From Candidatus Undinarchaeota archaeon (lineage in GTDB: Archaea > Undinarchaeota > Undinarchaeia > Undinarchaeales > UBA543): a stretch of DNA of 64,000 bases. Below the pieces are notes generated by a model. The model was not told where the DNA came from. It searched no databases and saw nothing but the letters and a program-made list of their open reading frames with translations. The DNA lies in assembly GCA_964567575.1 (NCBI GenBank), contig CAZMMZ010000007.1, positions 2,090 through 66,089 of the forward strand. Direction: 5' to 3'. Positions 1,338 through 59,836 of this stretch are shown piece by piece. Each line of letters starts with the position of its first letter. Within the stretch, counting starts at the first letter, position 1. The position numbers were made by a program, and so were the translations under genes.

Positions 1338-3772
1338 TATCCAAAATATTCACTCAGCTTTCCTTGCTTCTTCCCAAGCAGTTCATCTTCTCCATAGCCA
1401 AGCGCCTCCATCACTCTTGAAACAGCAGGAACAATCTGATGCTCAATATAATATTTCTTATCATAATTTTTGATATTAAATCCTTCAAGTGGTTTTGCTC
1501 GGTCCGAAACCTTACCCCCACCTTCAGCAATAGCATATCCAATTGTTGAACCTGTGCGGATATCCTCTCCTTTACTTTTCAGAATTTTAGCAACAGCAAT
1601 ATGCGGTGCCGTCACTAAATATTTATCAAGTGGCCGCGTTAAGTCTGTGTAAACTGCAAGATCTTCAATTGTCACATCCCCTGCATTAATTTTTTTAATA
1701 ACTTCTCTAACAACTTTGAAAGCTTTTTCAACATCTCCTTCTTTCAAAAGAGTTTCAATTGTTTTCTTTTGTGTTTCTTTTGCAATTGGGGACCAATCCT
1801 TCCTAACAAATTCAAGTCCTTTGATTTTGAGTTCTCCTTTTTCATCAATCATTGCATAGCGTTTCTTTGAAACAAACACTCCGCGCGTGTATAAATCTTC
1901 GAATTCCAGTTCCATAACTCCTGGCAATTCTTTATTTGCACGAATTTGGAATTTCTTTCCAATTTCTTTTATTTTTTTATCTTCTGTTTTTGTTGTAACA
2001 AAAAGAGAATCAGTATCTCCATAAACTGCTTTCAAATCAAATTCTTTTTCTGCAATATCAACAATCTTTTTGATGTACTCTCTGCCAAGTGCAGTAACAC
2101 TACTTGCCCCCTCACGAGTGTACCACCGAGATCCGCGATATGCTAAATAACCATAAGATGAATTTGCAAGAATCTTGAGTGTGTATTGCATGTTGTTCAG
2201 TTTGGTATATTCATCAGAGTCTTTCTTGCATTTCTTCATATCCTCTTTTATTTTCACACGCTCTTCAAGAATATTTCTTAAAACTGCTGGCATTAATCCA
2301 ATACGCTTCTCGCAGAACCAGTGCCCACCTGCAACCACTTTTGCTTTGCCTTTGCAACAGTCGCAGTCGATTGTGCTTTGGTCGATGTTGTGAGAAATTA
2401 TAATTGTTGGATACAGTGATCTGAAATCGAAGAGTGCAATGTTCTCGTGCATTCCTTTGTCTGGTTCTAAAACAAAAGCACCTTCAAATGCTTCGAATTG
2501 CGCGCGAGCTTCTTTCTCTTCAGACATTGGACGATTTGGAATTAATTCATTTCTTTCAAGTGCATTCCACATCAAATACGCTTCAACAAGTTGGCCGTAA
2601 GTTGTTCTGCTTGCATCGAAAAGAGGAACGCGAACTTTTTTTGCAATTTCATATTCACGAGGAAGGAATAAATCTGAAAGTTTTTTTGTAACAACTGCAT
2701 CTATGAGAGAATATTCGTAAAGTTCATCAAGTTTTTTCTTGTCGCCTTTCCAATATATCGGTATCTTTTTCCAATCAAGATCTTTTTTCCCTTCACCTTC
2801 TTTTAGGAAGTGGCCTGCAACGCTTTTCAAAGTCCGTTTATTGACTTGCCCAAGTGCTCCGCGCAGAATAATATTAACATAATGGAAAAGATCAATGTGC
2901 TCTCGGCCAGTCATACCAGCAGAGTGGTACCGCCCTTTGCTTCTCTGTTTAATTCCTCTATCATCTCTCCCGAGTTTCAGTTTGTAATCAAACTTTTTCG
3001 CTCGTGTATTGATGAAAGGCATATCGAAATTATCAGAGTTGTAAGCTGTGAGTATGTCAATATCGTTTTCTTCAATGAATTTTTCAAATGCTTGAAGAAT
3101 TCCTTTTTCATCTTTCACAACTTCAACAAAGTCTGGGCCTTTTTTTGTTGAGAAAACTTTTTTTATTTTGTCAGTTGCAACACTGAGCATTATCATTGGG
3201 TCTGTTTCCGGTTGTGGAAGCCCACCTGGGCCATAAGCTTCAATATCAAAAGCAGCGACATTCATTTTTGGAATTTCATCATCAACTTGTTTTGGCTCGC
3301 CTTCCATTTCAATTGCAATTTCAACTTTGAGTGGTGAATCAAATGGAGCTCCTTTGACTTTTATCATAGTCATTGGCTCAAGCTTCTTATCCAAAATGTA
3401 TCTGCGCCCGAATAAAATATCTGCTTCAAAATAATTTTCAACACCTTTAATTCGCTTAACAGCTTCGCGCGCTTCGCGAACTTGTGTTGGATTTTTCGTA
3501 TAGACTTTTGCTAATTCTGTTTTTTTTGTTTTGTAATATCTCTCCACTTTTTCAACTTTTACAATTTCATATTCTGAAGTTTTCATTTCTAGTAATCGTT
3601 TCTTCACATCTTCAAAACCATCATCAAGCAGTGCATAGAAATACGGTTCAAAAGTCTTGTCAGTAACTAAGATACTTTTCCCCTCTTTAGTTCTGCCAAA
3701 CATTCGAATTACTGCTTTTCCATTCACAAGTTCGTAATCAATGTCCAGCAAACAGAAAGTGTATTCTGCCAT
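1337..3772 (-). CDS. polB: DNA polymerase, family B
   Basis: 811 aa. Exonuclease motifs (FDIE, YNSDNFDMPF) and polymerase motifs (SLYPTII, KILANSSYGY, YGDTDSLFV). No intein-sized insertion. Confidence 0.95.
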   Translation of the reverse strand: MAEYTFCLLDIDYELVNGKAVIRMFGRTKEGKSILVTDKTFEPYFYALLDDGFEDVKKRLLEMKTSEYEIVKVEKVERYYKTKKTELAKVYTKNPTQVREAREAVKRIKGVENYFEADILFGRRYILDKKLEPMTMIKVKGAPFDSPLKVEIAIEMEGEPKQVDDEIPKMNVAAFDIEAYGPGGLPQPETDPMIMLSVATDKIKKVFSTKKGPDFVEVVKDEKGILQAFEKFIEENDIDILTAYNSDNFDMPFINTRAKKFDYKLKLGRDDRGIKQRSKGRYHSAGMTGREHIDLFHYVNIILRGALGQVNKRTLKSVAGHFLKEGEGKKDLDWKKIPIYWKGDKKKLDELYEYSLIDAVVTKKLSDLFLPREYEIAKKVRVPLFDASRTTYGQLVEAYLMWNALERNELIPNRPMSEEKEARAQFEAFEGAFVLEPDKGMHENIALFDFRSLYPTIIISHNIDQSTIDCDCCKGKAKVVAGGHWFCEKRIGLMPAVLRNILEERVKIKEDMKKCKKDSDEYTKLNNMQYTLKILANSSYGYLAYRGSRWYTREGASSVTALGREYIKKIVDIAEKEFDLKAVYGDTDSLFVTTKTEDKKIKEIGKKFQIRANKELPGVMELEFEDLYTRGVFVSKKRYAMIDEKGELKIKGLEFVRKDWSPIAKETQKKTIETLLKEGDVEKAFKVVREVIKKINAGDVTIEDLAVYTDLTRPLDKYLVTAPHIAVAKILKSKGEDIRTGSTIGYAIAEGGGKVSDRAKPLEGFNIKNYDKKYYIEHQIVPAVSRVMEALGYGEDELLGKKQGKLSEYFG

Positions 3773-9110: not shown

Positions 9111-9508
9111 ATAATGTACCACGCTTTTGGAGAGAAATACCGCAACGGTATAATTTCATTGGAAATAAATGCAAAGGTTGCGATTGGATTAATTTCCCTC
9201 CAAGAAGTATTTGCAAAAAATGCGGATCATCAGAATTTGAGCGATTTGATTTGAAAGGAGAAGGTAAGGTTATTACCTACTCTGTAATTAGGGCGGCGCC
9301 TCCTGGTTTCGATAACTTAGTTCCTTATGTTGTTGCTATAATTTGTCTTAATGATGGTCCACGAATCACTTCGCAAATTGTAGATTGCGATCCAGAAGAA
9401 ATTGAAATAGGAAAAAAAGTTAAAGTATGCTTCAGAAAGATTGTTGAGGACGGAAAAGCTGGTGCAATTTCGTATGGATATAAATTCAGGTTATTAGATG
9501 AACAGTGA
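9107..9508 (+). CDS. DUF35 OB-fold/zinc-ribbon protein (thiolase-HMGCS scaffold subunit)
   Basis: 133 aa. CxxC..CxxC rubredoxin-like ribbon (CKGCDW..CKKCGS) followed by an OB fold. The position between thiolase and HMGR matches the known archaeal thiolase/HMGCS/DUF35 complex. Confidence 0.85.
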   Translation: MNNVPRFWREIPQRYNFIGNKCKGCDWINFPPRSICKKCGSSEFERFDLKGEGKVITYSVIRAAPPGFDNLVPYVVAIICLNDGPRITSQIVDCDPEEIEIGKKVKVCFRKIVEDGKAGAISYGYKFRLLDEQ

Positions 9509-10697
9509 ACCAATTTCTAATCAGGGCTTCGCGAGTAAAACGAGCGAATGCCCTCGGCCATCGTCCGCGGCCAGGCGGACTTCACGAGTTTCCAAATTTT
9601 ATGAGCGCTCAATTGAAGAGCGACTTGAATTTGTTAAAGAATTCGCAGATTTATCTGATGAAGAAATCAATTTATTGAAATCTAGCCCTGATCAGAACAC
9701 ATCTGACAAAATAATTGAGAATGTTATAGGGAATTATTCACTTCCAATTGGAATTGCAGTGAATTTCCAAATTAATGATAAAGATTATTTGATTCCAATG
9801 GTTTTAGAGGAGCCATCAGTTGTTGCAGCTGCTTCAAATGCTGCGAAACTCGCTCGAGAGTGTGGTGGGTTCACTACATCAGCTGATGATCCAGTGATGA
9901 TTGGGCAGATTCACGTTTTCGATAGCAAGCACCCAAATGTAGTGCAACACATTTTAGCAAAAAAAGAAGAGTTACTTTCTGTTGCAAATTCAAAAGATCC
10001 AATGATGATTGAACGCGGAGGTGGTGCAAAAGATTTGGATGTGAAAATTATTAATGATAATCATATTCGCATACATCTTTATGTTGATTGTCGCGATGCA
10101 ATGGGTGCAAATGCAGTAAATACCATGGTTGAAGCAATTGCGCCATTAATTACTGATGAAATCGGGGGGAAAGCAGTTCTTAAGATTATTTCTAATATGG
10201 CAGATCGTAGACTTGTACGTGCAGAATGCACATTCAGTAGAGATCTTCTTGGAGATGATACAATTGATCTTATTCACAAGGGTCAATTAGCTGCTGAAGC
10301 AGATTCTTATCGCGCAGCAACACATAACAAAGGAATTATGAATGCAATCTCAGCAATTTGCGTAGCAACTGGAAATGATTGGCGCGCAGTTGAGGCAGGG
10401 GCTCACGCTTTTGCCGGGCGCGGCGAAGGATATAATCCTCTTACAAAATATCAAATATTAAATCATGGTGATTTACTTGCAAGCATTGAGCTTCCACTTG
10501 CTGTTGCAACTGTTGGCGGCTCAACAAAACTTCCACAGGCGCGAGTGAATCAAAAAATTATTGGTGCGCAAACTTCACAAGAACTTGCTCAGGTAATGGC
10601 TGCAGCAGGATTGGCGCAAAACTTCGCAGCTCTGAAAGCAATTACAACAGAAGGAATACAGAAAGGGCATATGCGATTGCACGAGCGGAAAAACTAA
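9498..10697 (+). CDS. hmgA: HMG-CoA reductase, class II, with an unusual about 30-aa N-terminal leader encoded by a GC-rich repeat element
   Basis: ENVIGNYSLPIGIAVNF, LEEPSVVAAASNAAKLAR and DAMGANAVNTMVEAIAPLI are class II (P. mevalonii / S. aureus type) motifs. The only ATG/GTG/TTG upstream of the conserved FYERSIEERL region is ATG 9498, so the ORF reads through element copy C. Confidence 0.9.
   Translation: MNSEPISNQGFASKTSECPRPSSAARRTSRVSKFYERSIEERLEFVKEFADLSDEEINLLKSSPDQNTSDKIIENVIGNYSLPIGIAVNFQINDKDYLIPMVLEEPSVVAAASNAAKLARECGGFTTSADDPVMIGQIHVFDSKHPNVVQHILAKKEELLSVANSKDPMMIERGGGAKDLDVKIINDNHIRIHLYVDCRDAMGANAVNTMVEAIAPLITDEIGGKAVLKIISNMADRRLVRAECTFSRDLLGDDTIDLIHKGQLAAEADSYRAATHNKGIMNAISAICVATGNDWRAVEAGAHAFAGRGEGYNPLTKYQILNHGDLLASIELPLAVATVGGSTKLPQARVNQKIIGAQTSQELAQVMAAAGLAQNFAALKAITTEGIQKGHMRLHERKN
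9506..9580 (+). repeat. GC-rich two-hairpin element, copy C (inside the hmgA 5' end)
   Basis: TGAACCAATTTCTAATC / AGGGC-TTCGC..GCGAA-T-GCCCT / CGGCCATC / GTCCGC-GGCCAG-GCGGAC. The core is near-identical to copies A and B. Its first 3 nt are the DUF35 stop codon. Confidence 0.8.
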
Positions 10698-42908: not shown

Positions 42909-42932
42909 TTTGAAATTAGTAGCCCCGAGCAG
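42909..42932 (-). repeat. Second copy of the tRNA-Gln 3' end (tRNA nt 61-73 plus trailer)
   Basis: 42915-42932 is an exact 18-nt copy of 43033-43050 (attagtagccccgagcag). Similarity extends to 24 nt with 2 mismatches. Confidence 0.9.
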
Positions 42933-43011
42933 TTCCGAACGTCCGCCTTGCCGCGGACAATGGCATGAGGGCATTCGCCTACGGGCGAAGCCCTGGTTTG
43001 AAATTGGTTCA
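42933..43011 (-). repeat. GC-rich two-hairpin element, copy A (downstream of tRNA-Gln)
   Basis: Minus strand: TGAACCAATTTCAAACC / AGGGC-TTCGCC-CGTA-GGCGAA-T-GCCCT / CATGCCATT / GTCCGC-GGCAAG-GCGGAC / GTTCGGAA. Confidence 0.85.
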
Positions 43012-43037
43012 GATCTGTCTAAGTTATTTGTGATTAG

Positions 43038-43110
43038 TAGCCCCGAGCAGATTCGAACTGCTGTCCCAAGCTCCAGGGGCTCGGATGATTGACCACTACA
43101 CCACGGGGCT
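43038..43110 (-). tRNA. tRNA-Gln (CUG), no encoded CCA, apparent C at position 33
   Basis: Hand-folded: AGCCCCG-TG-GTGT..-CGAGC CCCTGGA GCTTG-GGAC-AGCAG TTCGAAT CTGCT-CGGGGCT-A. The acceptor and D region match archaeal tRNA-Gln. Confidence 0.8.
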
Positions 43111-54412: not shown

Positions 54413-54489
54413 TGGCAGGCCCGCCGAGATTTGAACTCGGGACTGCGGCTCCGCAAGCCACCATGATATCCAAGCTACACCACGGGCCT
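54413..54489 (-). tRNA. tRNA-Arg (GCG), CCA encoded
   Basis: Hand-folded: AGGCCCG-TG-GTGT..-GTGGC TTGCGGA GCCGC-AGTC-CCGAG TTCAAAT CTCGG-CGGGCCT-G-CCA. Confidence 0.88.
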
Positions 54490-54534
54490 AATTTAGCTTT
54501 AGAATTCTAATTCTATGTCTTTATATTATTACCG

Positions 54535-55071
54535 TTATACTACCCTAAGCCAGTTTATGAAAAGGTATGGGAATTTGCTAAGTGCAAACCATGCGAGAGT
54601 CATGTAAAATGTTCCCATTATAATATACTTTATTGGATTTTCATGAAATGTGAAAAATCTGCTGATTTCCCTGAAAACTTCTGCTAATATAAATATGACA
54701 ATTCCCCAAACCAAGAAATTACTAAGTGTTAAAAAACTGGCAAAAATCGCTATAAAGATCATGTGAATCATATCCATCCCAACTAAAATCGGGTTGTAGA
54801 TTCCTATTTTTGCACTTAATATCTTTGATGGCCATGTTGATAATATTGCTACTAATATTGCTATCCACGGTCCATAAATTATTGCCAAGAATAATATCAA
54901 AATGCTGTGTACTTCAAGATTCACTGTGTGATATACTAAATTTGATCTGCTGAGAATACAAAGAACTATTGTCCAAATTAGCATCCTTGAAGCGCCTGGA
55001 AGAACAATTGGTGCGAGAACGAGAATTAAGACTAGCGACATCACTCCCATGAAATATTTTTTTATATCCAC
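54535..55071 (-). CDS. Multi-TM membrane protein (family member P3)
   Basis: 178 aa, 5-6 TM segments. VNLEVHS..IIYGP pattern. Confidence 0.55.
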   Translation of the reverse strand: MDIKKYFMGVMSLVLILVLAPIVLPGASRMLIWTIVLCILSRSNLVYHTVNLEVHSILILFLAIIYGPWIAILVAILSTWPSKILSAKIGIYNPILVGMDMIHMIFIAIFASFLTLSNFLVWGIVIFILAEVFREISRFFTFHENPIKYIIMGTFYMTLAWFALSKFPYLFINWLRVV

Positions 55072-55138
55072 ACTAATCCCCTCTCTTGTTTGCTATTACT
55101 ACATTTAGCCGTTTATTAATTTTTGTATTAAAGTAAAA

Positions 55139-55154
55139 AAGCACCACCGGAGAG
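55139..55154 (-). repeat. Second copy of the tRNA-Arg(CCU) 3' end (tRNA nt 61-73 plus trailer)
   Basis: A 16-nt exact copy of 55229-55244 (aagcaccaccggagag). The adjoining AT-rich 15-17 nt (55126-55140 vs 55214-55230) are also similar. Confidence 0.9.
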
Positions 55155-55214
55155 TTCCGAACGTCCGCCTGGCCGCGGACAATGGCCAAGGGCATTCGAC
55201 TTCGTCGAAGCCCT
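55155..55214 (-). repeat. GC-rich two-hairpin element, copy B (downstream of tRNA-Arg CCU)
   Basis: Minus strand: AGGGC-TTCGAC-GAA-GTCGAA-T-GCCCT / TGGCCATT / GTCCGC-GGCCAG-GCGGAC / GTTCGGAA. Confidence 0.85.
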
Positions 55215-55231
55215 ATTAAAAATGTAAGAAG

Positions 55232-55306
55232 CACCACCGGAGAGATTTGAACTCTCGACTTTTTCCTTAGGAGGGAAACGCCTTATCCAGACTAGGCTAC
55301 GGTGGT
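55232..55306 (-). tRNA. tRNA-Arg (CCU), no encoded CCA
   Basis: Hand-folded: ACCACCG-TA-GCCT AGTCTGGATA AGGC-G-TTTCC CTCCTAA GGAAA-AAGTC-GAGAG TTCAAAT CTCTC-CGGTGGT-G. Confidence 0.88.
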
Positions 55307-55316
55307 ATTTTGAAAT

Positions 55317-57059
55317 TTACATCCTGTCCGGGACTTCGATTCCAAGAAGATACAAGCATTTCTTTAATGTTTTAAATGTTGCGTTAACCAATCCCAACCG
55401 AGCGTCTCTTACTTCAGTGTCTTCAGCATCTAAAACAGGATTTGTGGTGTAAAATGAGCTAAACTTGTCTGCCAATGCGTAAGCATAATTAGCAATAATA
55501 TGTGGTTGATAAGTTTCTGCGGATTCTGCTATAACACTTGGAAGTTTTCCAATTTGTTTTATTAATCTCTGTTCATCTTTATTATTCAAATGTTTGAATT
55601 TAATACTAGCAAGTGCTGGTTTCTTTTTTGCTTTTTCCAAAATTCTTTTTGCCCTAACTGCAGCGTATTGAATGTAAGGTCCAGTTTCTCCTTCAAATTC
55701 CAATGCAGTATCCCAGTCAAAGAAAATTGTTTTATTATTTCCAACATTTAGCATACTAAATTTCATAGCTGCAATTGTTATTTTCATTGCAAGAGCTCTC
55801 TGTGTTTTTTGATCAAGTTCTGGATTTCTTTGAATAATTTCACCCATTGCTTTTTTTAGCATTTCATTTTTTAATTCTGAATAAAGAATTGCAGTTCCTT
55901 CACGCGAAGACATTTTTCCACCTTTCAAACTTACGAGAGCATAAGCCAAATGATAACATTTCTTTGCTTGTTTGAAGCCCATTAATTCAAGGGTTTTGAA
56001 TAATTGCTGAAAGTGAAGTCTTTGTTCAGATCCAACAACATAAACTGAGCGATTAATTTTGTATTTCTTAAATTTCTCTTCAGCTAGTGCAAGATCTTGT
56101 GTTGAATATAAAGTTGTTCCATCAGTTTTCAATAAGAGCCAAACCGGTAGCCCGTGCTTCTTTAGATCAACAATTAATGCTCCTTTACTTTTCTTTGCTA
56201 GTTTCTTTTTTCTAAGTTCTTCAGTTAATTCTCTTCCTCTATCAAGTAAATCACTTTCATAAAAATCAACATCAAAATTTGCACCAAGTTCTTTGTAAAT
56301 TTCTTTAAATTCATCAATACTCCATTTTCTAAATTGTTTCCAAAGATCAACAAGCTCTTTATCGTCTTGAGCTTCAAGGTGTTTCAGAATTTCAGTTACT
56401 TCTTCTTTTTTGTCAGGAGTTTCATTTAGTTTTTGTACAGCTTCTGTGTAAATGCTTCCTATCCAATTTGAAAGATTTCCTTTTGGTTTTTCTCCGTCAT
56501 GGAAATTCTTGTAAGCCCAAATTGTTTTTGCAACATGCATTCCTACATCATTAAATAGATTTGCCTGAACAACATCGTATCCTGCTTCTTTAATAATTCT
56601 TGACAAACTTTCTCCAAGTGTTGTGTTTCTCAAATGTCCAATATGAAAAGCCTTGAGTGGATTAGGTTGACTGTACTCAATCATTATCTTGTCTTTCTTT
56701 TTCTCACCTTTTCCAAATGAATCAGTATTCGCTTCAGTTACAACAGCTTTTGCGAATTCTCCGAATTTGAGGAAGAAATTAACATAAGCTCCTGCAAGTT
56801 TGATTAGAAAAACACTTCGCGGCCTTTTGATTTTTTCAATAATTTCTTCAGCAATTTTGCGAGGACTTACTTTTTTGATTTTGCCAAGTGGGAAAGAAAT
56901 ACTACAAGCCAAATCTCCCATTTTGTAACTTGGGGGTTCGTCAATATGATTTTTTAATTTTATTTTTCCTAGTGGAGTTTTTGCGATTCCTAATTTTGGT
57001 AGAACCTCAGCTATTGCTTTTGTTACATCTTCTTTTGCTTTAATCCATGGATCTTTCAT
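55317..57059 (-). CDS. argS: Arginyl-tRNA synthetase
   Basis: 580 aa. Class I HIGH region (NPLKAFHIGHLRN), KMSSREG, and a C-terminal DALR anticodon-binding domain. Confidence 0.93.
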   Translation of the reverse strand: MKDPWIKAKEDVTKAIAEVLPKLGIAKTPLGKIKLKNHIDEPPSYKMGDLACSISFPLGKIKKVSPRKIAEEIIEKIKRPRSVFLIKLAGAYVNFFLKFGEFAKAVVTEANTDSFGKGEKKKDKIMIEYSQPNPLKAFHIGHLRNTTLGESLSRIIKEAGYDVVQANLFNDVGMHVAKTIWAYKNFHDGEKPKGNLSNWIGSIYTEAVQKLNETPDKKEEVTEILKHLEAQDDKELVDLWKQFRKWSIDEFKEIYKELGANFDVDFYESDLLDRGRELTEELRKKKLAKKSKGALIVDLKKHGLPVWLLLKTDGTTLYSTQDLALAEEKFKKYKINRSVYVVGSEQRLHFQQLFKTLELMGFKQAKKCYHLAYALVSLKGGKMSSREGTAILYSELKNEMLKKAMGEIIQRNPELDQKTQRALAMKITIAAMKFSMLNVGNNKTIFFDWDTALEFEGETGPYIQYAAVRAKRILEKAKKKPALASIKFKHLNNKDEQRLIKQIGKLPSVIAESAETYQPHIIANYAYALADKFSSFYTTNPVLDAEDTEVRDARLGLVNATFKTLKKCLYLLGIEVPDRM

Positions 57060-57096
57060 TGTTCACCTGTATGTTTCTGCGGTTTTTAAATGTAAG

Positions 57097-57170
57097 TGGG
57101 CCCGCAGGGATTTGAACCCCAGTTTGGAGGTCCGAAGCCTCCCGTGATATCCAAGCTACACCACGGGCCC
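57097..57170 (-). tRNA. tRNA-Arg (UCG), no encoded CCA
   Basis: Hand-folded: GGGCCCG-TG-GTGT..-GGAGG CTTCGGA CCTCC-AAAC-TGGGG TTCAAAT CCCTG-CGGGCCC-A. Confidence 0.85.
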
Positions 57171-57212
57171 ATTTTAACCTTAAATGTAGGGTATTAGCTT
57201 ATTTAATAATAT

Positions 57213-57225
57213 TGTCATATGTCAC
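57213..57225. promoter_or_regulatory. TGTCATATGTCAC motif, site 3
   Basis: 43-55 nt upstream of the tRNA-Arg(UCG) 5' end, just past the alaX stop. Confidence 0.3.
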
Positions 57226-57228
57226 TTT

Positions 57229-57867
57229 TTAGTGGTCTAGCATAATTTCAATACGTTCTTTGCCTGCACCAATATTTTTCCTCTTAAGCCGGATTTTTCC
57301 AATTTCTCCGGTCCGCTTGACGTGTGTTCCCCCGCAAGGCATTTTCCATTCTCCTAATTCCCACCATCTTTTTCCAGGTTCTTCAGAATCTTCATAAACT
57401 TTTATTTCTAAATCTTGTGCAATTATTTCATCAACTTTTTTTTGTATTTCGTCAAAATAATTTACAACTGATTCTTCCATTTCATAATCAATTCGAGCTT
57501 TTTCTGGATGCATATTGGAACCAATTAGTTTTGACTGTCCACTAATGTCTTTGAAAATGTAATAAATAATATGCGCTGAACTGTGAAGACGCATTAATCT
57601 AAATCTGTTTTCCCAATCCAATTCTACTTTGACAGTGTCGTCTTCTTTAAAATCCGGCGCGCTTTCCAAAGTGTAAACAATATCATCTCCTGTTTTCAAA
57701 GCCTCAGTAATTTGGATTCCAGTAATAGTTCCTTTATCTGATGCCTGTCCACCAGAAAATGCAAACAAAACAGTCTTATCTAAAACAACATTGTTTCCAT
57801 CCAGTTTCTGAACCACAGCATCACATTCTTTCAAATATGGATCTTGCCAAAATAATTTTTCTGTCAT
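57229..57867 (-). CDS. alaX: Alanyl-tRNA editing protein AlaX (SAD-type)
   Basis: 212 aa. HSSAHIIYY (HxxxH) and CGGTHV (CxxxH) zinc motifs of the Ala/Thr-RS second additional domain. Confidence 0.85.
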   Translation of the reverse strand: MTEKLFWQDPYLKECDAVVQKLDGNNVVLDKTVLFAFSGGQASDKGTITGIQITEALKTGDDIVYTLESAPDFKEDDTVKVELDWENRFRLMRLHSSAHIIYYIFKDISGQSKLIGSNMHPEKARIDYEMEESVVNYFDEIQKKVDEIIAQDLEIKVYEDSEEPGKRWWELGEWKMPCGGTHVKRTGEIGKIRLKRKNIGAGKERIEIMLDH

Positions 57868-57874
57868 ATGAATA

Positions 57875-57952
57875 TGGTGGGCCTGAAGGGATTTGAACCC
57901 TTGATCTACAGCTTAGAAGGCTGTCGCCTTATCCAGACTAGGCTACAGGCCC
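57875..57952 (-). tRNA. tRNA-Arg (UCU), CCA encoded
   Basis: Hand-folded: GGGCCTG-TA-GCCT AGTCTGGATA AGGC-G-ACAGC CTTCTAA GCTGT-AGATC-AAGGG TTCAAAT CCCTT-CAGGCCC-A-CCA. Confidence 0.9.
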
Positions 57953-57996: not shown

Positions 57997-58506
57997 TTAC
58001 TTGAAAGCTTCTGGTGGCTTGTTATAGTCCATGCTGAATCTTTTGCTAAATTGTTTGTGTATAACAAACTGCACCAAACTCATTGCAATGAACAAAATAA
58101 GTATGTTCATCAATGCTTTTGAGAATGGATAATAATACAACATGAATCCCATTAATCCGATTGGGACTATTGTCACAATCGCCACTGCTATTTTTGCAAT
58201 AATTCGGGCATATGGATCTTTACAATTTCCTGTTCTGTAAATCTCTGCTGCTACAATTCCCCAAGCACTTGAATATCTTTTTCCAAAGCAGAATACTTTA
58301 GAATTCTTATGTAACCAGGTAAGAGTCAGCACTAAAACAATAGCACAGGACACATAAACAATCGATGCAATGGGCGATCCTTTATATCTGAGACTTGATA
58401 TTCCGTAAGCTCCAAGCCCAAGATAAAAAAGAATGAAAATATTTTCAATATCGACCCACAAATCAGCCATATGTTTATACCGTTCTTTTATCTTTTTCAT
58501 TTCCAA
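57997..58506 (-). CDS. Membrane protein, unknown function
   Basis: 169 aa, about 4 TM segments. Confidence 0.5.
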   Translation of the reverse strand: MEMKKIKERYKHMADLWVDIENIFILFYLGLGAYGISSLRYKGSPIASIVYVSCAIVLVLTLTWLHKNSKVFCFGKRYSSAWGIVAAEIYRTGNCKDPYARIIAKIAVAIVTIVPIGLMGFMLYYYPFSKALMNILILFIAMSLVQFVIHKQFSKRFSMDYNKPPEAFK

Positions 58507-58606
58507 AAAATTAGATTTTGATGGTTTATAAATCCTCTGTTTATCACCCCTTTAGAATTATTTTTAGTAATCCTTTATAACCCCCGATTAGAGTTCTCTT
58601 TCACTA

Positions 58607-59836
58607 ATGAAGATTACAAAAGCGTTAATCCTTGCTGCCGGGGATGGCAAGAGAATGAGGCCGCTTACAGATACACGGAACAAATGTTTACTTCCTGTAG
58701 CTAACAAGCCAATTATTCTTCGCAGTTTAGAAGCATTACGCGAAGCAGGAATTACAGAAGTCGTCGTCGTTGTCAGCAAGGAAAGTACTATTCCTGGTTT
58801 TCTTGAAGTGAATAATGAAGAGCTTGCAATCTCTTTTACAATTCAGGAAGAGCATTTAGGAACTGCTAATGCAATTGCAACTGCTCGCGAAAAATTGCCT
58901 GAAGATTTTATTGTTTTAAATGGAGATGATTTCTGCACTTCCGATCACCTTGAAAATATTATTTCAAATCACAATTCAAAAGCTACAATGTCTGTTATAA
59001 AAAAAGAAAATCCTGTTGGTCTCGGTGTTGTTGAAGTTGAAGGAAATAAAGTTCGAAAAATTGTTGAAAAACCTCCAAATGTTCAAGGAGAAGTTTTTGT
59101 TAATATTGGAATCTATGCATTCTCCCCAGACATTTTTGACATAATTGATAATCTCAAACTATCAGAACGCGGAGAATATGAAATCACAGATGCAATTCAA
59201 ACTCTTGTTGATTCTGGTGAACAAGTATCCTCAGTTGAAGCTGAGATGTGGATGCCTGTAAATTATCCGTGGGATCTTCTTACTGCAAATAAAAAATTCA
59301 TCAACGAGGAACCTGAAGAAATCAAAACAGAATTTGATCATGGAGTTACTGTAAAAGGAAAACTAATAGCAGGCGAAGGTACTTTTATCAAGGCCGGAGT
59401 TTATATTGAAGGTCCTGTTATGATTGGGAAGAATTGCATTATTGGTCCTAATGCTTTCTTACGTCCTTACACTTGCATTGGAGACAATTGCAAAATTGGT
59501 CAAGGTGTTGAAGTTAAAAATTCTGTTATCATGGATGGGACTTGTATTCCTCATCTTTCTTACATGGGCGATTCAGTTGTCGGTCGGAATGTAAATTTCG
59601 GGGCTGGTGCAATAATGACAAACTTACGTCATGATAATAAAAACATTCTTGTAAATATGAAAGGAAAGCAAGTTGATTCTGGGTTAAGAAAACTCGGCGG
59701 TCTTGTTGGCGACGATGTCAAATTCGGATCAAATGTTGTTGTCAATCCTGGAAAAAAGATTGGTTCAAAAGCAAGAATCTGGCCAGGTGTTGTTGTTAAT
59801 AATGATGTTGAATCTGGTGAAGAATACAAAGGTTAA
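58607..59836 (+). CDS. Bifunctional sugar-1-phosphate nucleotidyltransferase / left-handed beta-helix acetyltransferase (GlmU-like)
   Basis: 409 aa. ALILAAGDGKRMRPLTDTRNKCLLPV (NTP-transferase), then hexapeptide repeats (IGPNAFL..IGDNCKIG..VGRNVNFG..). Confidence 0.85.
   Translation: MKITKALILAAGDGKRMRPLTDTRNKCLLPVANKPIILRSLEALREAGITEVVVVVSKESTIPGFLEVNNEELAISFTIQEEHLGTANAIATAREKLPEDFIVLNGDDFCTSDHLENIISNHNSKATMSVIKKENPVGLGVVEVEGNKVRKIVEKPPNVQGEVFVNIGIYAFSPDIFDIIDNLKLSERGEYEITDAIQTLVDSGEQVSSVEAEMWMPVNYPWDLLTANKKFINEEPEEIKTEFDHGVTVKGKLIAGEGTFIKAGVYIEGPVMIGKNCIIGPNAFLRPYTCIGDNCKIGQGVEVKNSVIMDGTCIPHLSYMGDSVVGRNVNFGAGAIMTNLRHDNKNILVNMKGKQVDSGLRKLGGLVGDDVKFGSNVVVNPGKKIGSKARIWPGVVVNNDVESGEEYKG

Follow-up and report, generated by a model that had tools for sequence, protein, structure and literature searches.

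A probable small structured insertion element with target duplications at tRNA genes of marine Undinarchaeota

Casposons integrate at the 3′ ends of tRNA genes with a target-site duplication that contains the tRNA 3′ end, leaving the gene intact; they have terminal inverted repeats, a fixed duplication of 14–15 bp, and genes for Cas1 and PolB. Miniature inverted-repeat transposable elements (MITEs) combine inverted terminal repeats with a short fixed duplication, and REP and PATE elements have neither. The SINEs of eukaryotes (short interspersed nuclear elements) are small, structured and non-coding, spread by target-primed reverse transcription, and have precise 3′ ends, 5′ truncations and duplications that usually measure 7–20 nt; we know of no SINE-type retroposons in archaea or bacteria. 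Among tRNA-integrating elements of archaea, the familiar footprint is an intact tRNA gene with the element behind it, followed by a direct repeat that copies part of the tRNA 3′ end and typically reaches from a loop to beyond the 3′ end of the tRNA (PMC9897764, PMC3293823). Here we analyse a 64-kb stretch of DNA (the window) whose source is a marine member of the DPANN phylum Undinarchaeota, and in it a short element that lies between a complete tRNA-Arg(CCU) gene and a second copy of that tRNA's 3′ end. DPANN genomes are tiny and tightly packed, and their mobile DNA is little known. We hold, with moderate confidence, that this feature is a 5′-truncated copy of a small structured non-coding insertion element that is specific to marine Undinarchaeota and usually duplicates its target. 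The element family is previously undescribed and belongs among the small non-autonomous insertion elements with target duplications.

The tRNA-Arg(CCU) locus, like the tRNA-Gln locus described below, is read throughout on the minus strand. The tRNA gene (55232..55306, minus strand) is complete and canonical, encodes no CCA, scores 66.4 bits with the Rfam tRNA model and begins 10 nt past the stop codon of the arginyl-tRNA synthetase (ArgRS) gene; ARAGORN and Rfam agree on the call (55306→55231/55232). It is followed by a 17-nt trailer, CTTCTTACATTTTTAAT, and then by a 60-nt GC-rich block, AGGGCTTCGACGAAGTCGAATGCCCTTGGCCATTGTCCGCGGCCAGGCGGAC GTTCGGAA (55214→55155), which runs from AGGGC to GCGGAC and ends in an octamer. 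Directly behind this block stands the exact 16-mer CTCTCCGGTGGTGCTT (55154→55139), which equals tRNA nt 61–73 plus 3 trailer nucleotides. The 16-mer occurs exactly twice in the window (55229–55244 and 55139–55154), where shuffled sequence leads one to expect 0.01 occurrences and none of 100 shuffles gave two. The order of tRNA, 17-nt trailer, 60-nt block and exact 16-nt copy, first noticed from the letters alone (the original prediction), is thereby confirmed by ARAGORN, Rfam and the 16-mer counts.

The same prediction let the duplication start at nt 61. Exact identity does begin there, but the full extent by local alignment is 36–38 nt, comprising tRNA nt 53–73 and 17–18 nt of a trailer part that has diverged. 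The upstream copy of this target duplication (55215..55252, minus strand) consists of tRNA nt 53–73 (GTTCAAAT CTCTCCGGTGGTG) and the 17-nt trailer, and abuts the element with a gap of 0 nt. The downstream copy (55127..55154, minus strand) consists of tRNA nt 61–73 and trailer, with the first 16 nt exact and the remainder diverged. Local alignment of the two flanks scores 36, a value reached in 0 of 300 shuffles, and the repeat order is GTTCAAAT or GTTCGGAA, then CTCTCCGGTGGTG, then CTTYTTAC..TTTAAT.

Between the repeats lies the element core of this copy, B (55163..55214, minus strand), a 52-nt, 5′-truncated short form with no leader (nhmmer E = 2.8e-16; covariance model 84.9 bits). Its minimum-free-energy (MFE) fold predicts a P1 hairpin, GGGCTTCGAC GAA GTCGA-A-T-GCCC with a bulged T (55213→55190), a P2 helix that pairs GGCC at 55187→55184 with GGCC at 55174→55171, and a pseudoknot-type helix that pairs GTCCGC at 55180→55175 with GCGGAC at 55168→55163 (all minus strand); compensatory pairs support P1 and P2. 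The core is followed by the T-loop-like octamer GTTCGGAA (55155..55162, minus strand), which recurs, unchanged or nearly so, after copies at four tRNAs. The notion of a constant 60-nt element is not borne out: the element ends at ..GCGGAC and is a truncated member of a family in which other copies carry a leader or take a long form.

Eight independent assemblies (JGI, ENA and Logan samples) carry the tRNA-Arg locus without a single base difference, which shows it to be real, fixed in that population and not an assembly artefact. The orthologous ArgRS–tRNA-Arg(CCU) loci of sister genomes (L020/L021 and L022–L025; ArgRS 79–81% identical) are empty sites, and their trailers are homologous to the window sequence that follows the second tRNA 3′ copy. 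Copy B is a lineage-specific, recent insertion. As an observation apart, the relative with 81% ArgRS identity has another GC-rich hairpin (TTCCGAGGTTCCGGGGCGCAGGAGCGCCGCGGGGCTGAG) between the ArgRS stop codon and tRNA-Arg(CCU) (L020:11750-11795), which the window does not have.

A parallel architecture had been described at tRNA-Gln(CUG) (43037..43110, minus strand), and it holds. The upstream duplication copy (43058→43033) is followed by copy A (42941..43032, minus strand), a full-length short form with the leader CACAAATAACTTAGACAGATCTGAACCAATTTCAAACCA and the core (nhmmer E = 1.7e-16; covariance model 91.5 bits), and by the downstream duplication (42915..42940, minus strand), made up of GTTCGGAA and CTGCTCGGGGCTACTAAT. 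The 18-mer CTGCTCGGGGCTACTAAT occurs twice in the window, with 0.00 occurrences expected.

A profile search (nhmmer) revealed a third copy in the window, which the original prediction had missed: copy C (9506..9580, plus strand), a 75-nt short form with a leader from TGAACC and the core (nhmmer E = 1.7e-11; covariance model 77.1 bits). Copy C is an exact 75-nt in-frame insert just past the start codon of the HMG-CoA reductase (HMGR) gene (9498–10697, plus strand). It sits between ATGAACAG and TTCACGAG, contains no stop codons and adds 25 residues (EPISNQGFASKTSECPRPSSAARRT) that all orthologues are without; these begin MK(T/S)SRVSGFYK, and L026 and L028 provide the empty sites. The same 399-aa protein, insert included, is deposited as an Undinarchaeales protein. 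No target duplication flanks copy C. The empty sites at tRNA-Arg(CCU) and HMGR, found by comparison with sister genomes, demonstrate insertion polymorphism.

The short form extends beyond the window. A pattern built on the pseudoknot and T-loop matched 13 loci in a genome collection, 12 of which are chance matches (GC-rich bacteria and a haloarchaeal coding region). The remaining one is in UBA543 (L006), which has two copies, U1 after tRNA-Gln(UUG) and U2 after tRNA-Leu(UAA). Two more come from a metagenome scan, one behind tRNA-Ser(CGA) (L014) and a solo one between two convergent genes (L015). The short form thus comprises at least seven distinct copies with cores 83–98% identical, three of them in the window (A at tRNA-Gln(CUG), B at tRNA-Arg(CCU) and C at HMGR), and all are co-oriented with the upstream gene or tRNA. 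A short-form covariance model recovers the seven distinct copies together with Tara duplicates of the UBA543 locus; run over 210 kb of related sequence, it gave no additional, more divergent copies.

Given this recurrence at tRNA-Gln(UUG), tRNA-Leu(UAA) and tRNA-Ser(CGA) in other genomes, the arrangement is neither a one-off rearrangement nor the product of gene conversion between A and B alone. Of 17 tRNAs surveyed at related loci, all 5 that carry the element also have a 3′-end copy, and the 12 that do not carry it have none (Fisher p = 1.6e-4). A proposed link to tRNAs that lack an encoded CCA broke down in both directions: the three tRNAs just named encode CCA and carry the element, and the window tRNA-Arg(TCG) has neither CCA nor element.

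The short form consists of a 52–57-nt core and a leader of up to ~40 nt. By MFE folding the core is predicted to form a 10-bp P1 hairpin with a bulged T and then a short hairpin whose loop pairs with the 3′ end. Compensatory changes are present in both P1 (C–G to A–T, two versus two copies) and P2 (T–A to G–C, four versus three), with no violations, and the two changes group the copies in incongruent ways. The GTCCGC/GCGGAC helix is invariant in all copies, and covariation neither supports nor contradicts this predicted pairing. A further helix, which would close the element by pairing an NNGAAC leader with a GTTCNN octamer, is seen in A, U1, U2 and seemingly C and is absent from B, L014 and L015; it is not counted in the structure because its 3′ partner in C is ancestral HMGR coding sequence.

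A long form, X (130–210 nt), came to light through the leader motif GAACCAATTTC; it is present in several copies per genome in sister Undinarchaeota: L022:5708-5848 (X1), L020:1536-1740, L080:2516-2709, L085:11022-11150 (X2), L088:2466-2661 and L088:12621-12734(−). The 64-kb window has no X copy. The consensus fold of X has a predicted terminal stem, in which the leader pairs with the 3′ end, and P1 and P2 helices with variable apices; 7 of 26 pairs show compensatory changes, and a conserved G-poor stretch of ~40 nt appears in this model to be single-stranded. The leader GAACCAAYTTC is common to both forms, and the P2 of the short form looks equivalent to that of X; the 3′ third of X is missing from the short form. 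Over the whole window only tRNAs reach the Rfam gathering threshold; at E ≤ 10 nothing credible was found on loci B, C and X2, and at E ≤ 0.1 only tRNAs were found on L080, which holds another X copy. The family thus supplies a compact structured RNA motif, a hairpin plus a pseudoknot, without an Rfam match.

To measure duplication, 70 nt on each side of every copy were aligned locally and compared with 300 shuffles. Flanking direct duplications that align far better than the shuffles were found in 7 of the 12 copies, among them all five tRNA-linked short copies, and one further copy (the X after the threonyl-tRNA synthetase (ThrRS) gene in L088) agrees. The duplications measure ~22–41 nt and are present at tRNA and non-tRNA sites alike; the upstream repeat ends at the 5′ end of the element, and the downstream repeat begins 0–4 nt past its 3′ end. 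In the case of tRNA genes, the repeat covers everything from the T-loop to a point a few to ~20 nt beyond the tRNA. A 30-nt repeat of a promoter region lies on either side of X1 in L022; the window has this sequence once and without X (58500–58610), an empty site. The repeat around the ThrRS copy of L088 is at least 22 nt long and holds the last ThrRS codons and the stop codon; here, too, the window is an empty site. The mechanism had been supposed to act specifically at the boundary of T-loop and T-stem in tRNA genes, an idea contradicted by the presence of the same family at a promoter, at the ThrRS 3′ end and, without duplication, in HMGR.

Insertion of the element usually duplicates the flanking target, and the second tRNA 3′ end is therefore the downstream target duplication. 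As a general principle, the duplication regenerates the 3′ end of the upstream gene, which stays intact, and leaves an orphan 3′ end beyond the element. This shows how an insertion can sit against an essential single-copy gene, a tRNA or an aminoacyl-tRNA synthetase, without killing it. It also gives an origin for orphan 3′ pieces of tRNAs, which annotation pipelines may misread.

The two ends of the element behave differently. The 3′ end is precise in every copy, with ..GCGGAC in the short form and ..GCRGAG in the long form. The 5′ ends vary relative to GAACC: about −20 (A, U1 and X1), −10 (U2), −1 (C), 0 (L015), +6 (L014) and +17 (B). The full-length copies X1, A and U1 begin ACA(A/G)(A/T)TA(A/G)CT and directly abut the upstream repeat; L014 starts inside the leader, with the CCA of the tRNA overlapping the CCA of the leader; and B has nothing before the first base of P1. 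A 38-nt fragment of the X 3′ end after ThrRS (L085:6365-6402) was dropped as evidence for 5′ truncation, since L088 carries a full X with flanking duplication at the same site and the fragment is probably a decayed orthologous copy.

The octamer behind the core would best account for identity that starts at nt 61. It reads GTTCGGAA in A, B and U1, GTTCGGAG in U2 and L088, and GTTTGGAG in L085, whereas the T-loops of the local tRNAs differ (GTTCGAAT, GTTCAAAT and GTTCGAAC). Relative to these, the same two changes, A58 to G and N60 to a purine, are seen behind four different tRNAs with T-loops that read TTCGAAT, TTCGAAC and TTCAAAT; solo copies have no octamer. Independent decay to the same two changes at four tRNAs is implausible, and the octamer is therefore inherited from copy to copy. 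From these comparisons we infer that it is a decayed T-loop (G53–N60) from an older tRNA-linked copy. The octamer of L014 differs (GGGGCAAGT versus the local GGTTCAAAT) and seems to have arisen separately, from a T-loop that decayed at that locus.

An early insertion at a tRNA would then have duplicated a stretch from G53 onward, after which the orphan T-loop mutated; later copies, templated from such a locus including its 3′ flank, would have joined a new tRNA where homology resumes, at nt 61. Such a junction would be guided by homology, and a cut by an enzyme at 60/61 would not be needed. B and U2 have a common P1 apex, and GAGAG/CTCTC is the T-stem of both their tRNAs; A and U1 have the other apex and the T-stem CTGCT. 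The most likely source of copy B is an older copy linked to a tRNA that has this T-stem, of the tRNA-Leu(UAA) type; copy B would have brought the mutated T-loop GTTCGGAR from there and joined tRNA-Arg by short homology from nt 61 (CTCTCC).

The 3′ end is fixed, the 5′ ends vary and show microhomology, and the duplications measure 22–41 nt and are occasionally absent; this footprint fits copying that is anchored at the 3′ end. Such copying could proceed by replicative template switching between loci or by a target-primed, retroposition-like process, and a transposase that makes a stagger of ~30 bp may be a further mechanism. The underlying mechanism has a modest chance of being new for archaea: if polar truncation and long duplications reflect RNA-mediated or template-switch copying, the mode of spread is one not documented in archaea.

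Several observations weigh against an insertion element that duplicates its target. Five copies have no detectable duplication (C, L015, the X of L080, X1 of L020 and, by eye, the remnant at L085:6365), from which it follows that duplication is not obligatory, or decays. About eight independent events make up the series of 5′ truncations. The 50 window open reading frames (ORFs) scanned include no reverse transcriptase, integrase, transposase or Cas1. Terminal inverted repeats were not seen by eye (5′ ACA(A/G)(A/T)TAACT.. versus 3′ ..GCGGAC or ..CAGCRGAG), no inverted-repeat search having been run. The homology of short form and X rests on position, leader and architecture, and nhmmer gives no link between them. 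The comparisons as a whole cover only ~0.3 Mb of related sequence. Last, the orphan tRNA 3′ end at tRNA-Gln is better conserved than a by-product should be: in three lineages, 1 of 14 sites is variable in orphan nt 61–74 versus 9 of 14 in the 14 nt that follow (p = 0.004). This orphan copy must be subject to selection or to conversion from the neighbouring tRNA, and a pure by-product is otherwise unlikely.

Two of these lineages share the tRNA-Gln site. In L085, from a UBA543-like population, tRNA-Gln(CUG) is followed by an aligned trailer and leader, a full X, and then GTTTGGAG and CTGCTCGTGGCTAC. Both window copy A and L085 X2 stand after tRNA-Gln(CUG), next to and downstream of the same D-aminoacyl-tRNA deacylase gene. 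The two copies align in trailer and leader, and behind each come a T-loop-like octamer and tRNA nt 61–74. By position, copy A is therefore orthologous to an X copy, and the arrangement of tRNA, element and orphan is older than the split of these species. The third lineage, L088, has X followed by GTTCGGAG and CTGCTCGGGGCTAC; its contig stops short of any tRNA, and it has other genes nearby. In two other lineages (L083:11537-11610(−) and L087:4835-4908(−)), tRNA-Gln(CUG) lies on the opposite strand relative to the deacylase gene and has no element. The tRNA-Gln trailer of L083 (CTCTTTCAAAATC) resembles the window trailer behind the duplication, which fits either a never-occupied site or precise loss by recombination between repeats.

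The conserved tRNA-Gln orphan also speaks for another explanation, that the orphan tRNA 3′ end is a working part of an RNA in which tRNA and element (or X) are co-transcribed, serving as a processing handle, as an alternative pairing partner of the 5′ strands of the tRNA (a tRNA scaffold with the element in its T-loop) or as a guide-like tail. The common orientation of the short copies with their upstream gene or tRNA and the compensatory changes in the element helices are further points for it, and read-through from tRNA-Gln into copy A is plausible, as no T-run separates the two. At locus B, however, a T5 run lies between tRNA and element. The orphan copy has a 1-nt deletion at tRNA-Leu (U2) and a substitution at L085, the solo copies and several X copies have no tRNA piece at all, and the variable positions of the element do not track the identity of the local tRNA. 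Like duplications, moreover, flank copies at the promoter and at the ThrRS 3′ end, where no tRNA-related function applies. We consider a working RNA unlikely as the explanation of the locus.

Just as unlikely, in our judgement, is the idea that the family is an archaeal counterpart of SINEs, with X as an RNA master gene that spreads by target-primed reverse transcription, or else a self-retaining, guide-bearing RNA in which the orphan copy has its place. The element resembles SINEs in its precise 3′ end, variable 5′ truncation, variable duplication or lack of one, 5′ microhomology and subfamilies; 3′-anchored copying of X RNA would yield long duplications, 5′-truncated copies and subfamilies. 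At the level of sequence, then, the SINE hallmarks of 3′ end, 5′ truncation and variable duplication are present, as judged from a small series of about eight independent events. Unlike SINEs, the element has no A-tail or simple-repeat tail, and its duplications are longer; no reverse transcriptase was found in the 64-kb window. If either the SINE-like or the guide-RNA reading were true, this would be a kind of mobile element not described in archaea.

Somewhat less likely again is an origin as decayed attachment-site remnants of integrase-driven viruses or plasmids, with the 52-nt core as a conserved arm beside attR. An intact tRNA with a displaced partial 3′ copy is the standard archaeal integration footprint (PMC9897764, PMC3293823), and the repeat of our loci starts in the T-loop region and runs a variable distance past the tRNA. 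Tyrosine-integrase elements (pNOB8 and SSV types, and genomic islands) are alike in having direct repeats of a tRNA 3′ part at both ends of the insert. They differ in measuring kilobases, in encoding an integrase, in bringing a pre-made tRNA 3′ end and in being specific for one tRNA, whereas the Undinarchaeota element is 52–210 nt long and non-coding, stands at four tRNA species and at non-tRNA sites, and takes its duplication from the local target. All 13 loci have a cargo of 52–210 nt with no larger relative found, the duplications at the four tRNA species and at the non-tRNA targets are comparable, and both element ends directly abut the repeats. Five patterns run against the 2.9 million viral contigs of IMG/VR gave chance matches only and no element, and the 50 window ORFs scanned include no integrase.

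The insertion element that we favour also falls outside the other families to which its footprint might assign it: it is not a member of the integrase elements, casposons, MITEs, IS200/IS605-derived elements or bulge-helix-bulge introns. The casposon footprint is similar, but no inverted ends were seen in our element, its duplications vary between 22 and 41 nt, and no Cas1 was found in the window; the window PolB gene (1340–3772) is a conserved chromosomal gene that is also present in L026. Like MITE and REP repeats, the element is short, GC-rich, hairpin-forming and multi-copy, lies in short spacers, often co-oriented, and is probably co-transcribed with its neighbours; no inverted ends such as those of MITEs were seen in it, and its long variable duplications and polar truncation set it apart. 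An origin from IS200/IS605 elements of the PATE/REP kind does not fit two hairpins that differ in sequence, nor the presence of long duplications. The flank past the element 3′ end is only loosely T-rich (TTCAC, TTACA, GTTCG, TTATG and TACCA), with no fixed 4–5-nt motif; this loose TTC/GTTC flank is suggestive of IS200/IS605 or IS91-like single-strand or rolling-circle transfer, which the long duplications and dissimilar hairpins oppose. An integron attC-like site with crossover at G^TT was rejected since the copy C junctions do not fit it, and a diversity-generating retroelement since the differences between repeat copies are not adenine-specific.

The transposed non-canonical tRNA introns of the Thermoproteales are related short sequences at equivalent positions of different tRNAs (PMC4090602); they lie within the tRNA and are removed at a bulge-helix-bulge motif, whereas the Undinarchaeota element follows a complete tRNA, is without the motif and is also found away from tRNAs. 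Disruption of the tRNA gene, either by a bulge-helix-bulge intron at 60/61 that would make the first 3′ end intronic or as the 3′ piece of a split tRNA with a structured leader, is very improbable: a relative with 66% ArgRS identity (L081) does have a tRNA-Arg(CCU) with a D-loop insert and a T-loop insert at 59/60, and repetition of the D-loop insert in its next tRNA indicates that non-canonical, apparently mobile introns exist in the phylum, but the upstream tRNA of our locus is complete and scores as a normal tRNA, no register at B, A or C let the four nucleotides ahead of each putative splice site pair as a central helix and kept the T-stem as well when checked by hand against the strict motif of two 3-nt bulges around a 4-bp helix, solo copies stand outside tRNAs, and copy C, in frame and stop-free, is tolerable without splicing.

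The window has a GC content of ~37%, and its ArgRS and HMG-CoA reductase are 53–58% identical to Naiadarchaeum and Undinarchaeales entries and 100% identical to those of one Candidatus Undinarchaeales metagenome-assembled genome. In L081:11760-12100 (also in L082), where ARAGORN called no tRNA, a 37-nt D-loop insert is present in tRNA-Arg(CCU) and in the next tRNA, and a 21-nt T-loop insert (59/60) in tRNA-Arg(CCU). These inserts look like transposed non-canonical introns, and the T-loop intron parallels, in this phylum, the transposed tRNA introns of the Thermoproteales type. At L081:9530-9700, tandem 67-nt repeats that adjoin intron-bearing tRNA genes include TAACCAATTTC as its reverse complement and a piece similar to the 5′ end of a tRNA (GGGCCCGTGGTC). 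Rfam, though not ARAGORN, detects the tRNA-Arg(TCT) of L080:284-468, which is interrupted at the canonical 37/38 position by an intron of ~110 nt. The ArgRS gene itself stands in a conserved cluster with four tRNA-Arg isoacceptor genes, TCT, TCG, CCT and GCG (window 54413–57952; also L020, L022 and L080), which adjoins arginine and pyrimidine biosynthesis genes, an unusual neighbourhood of a synthetase and its cognate tRNAs.

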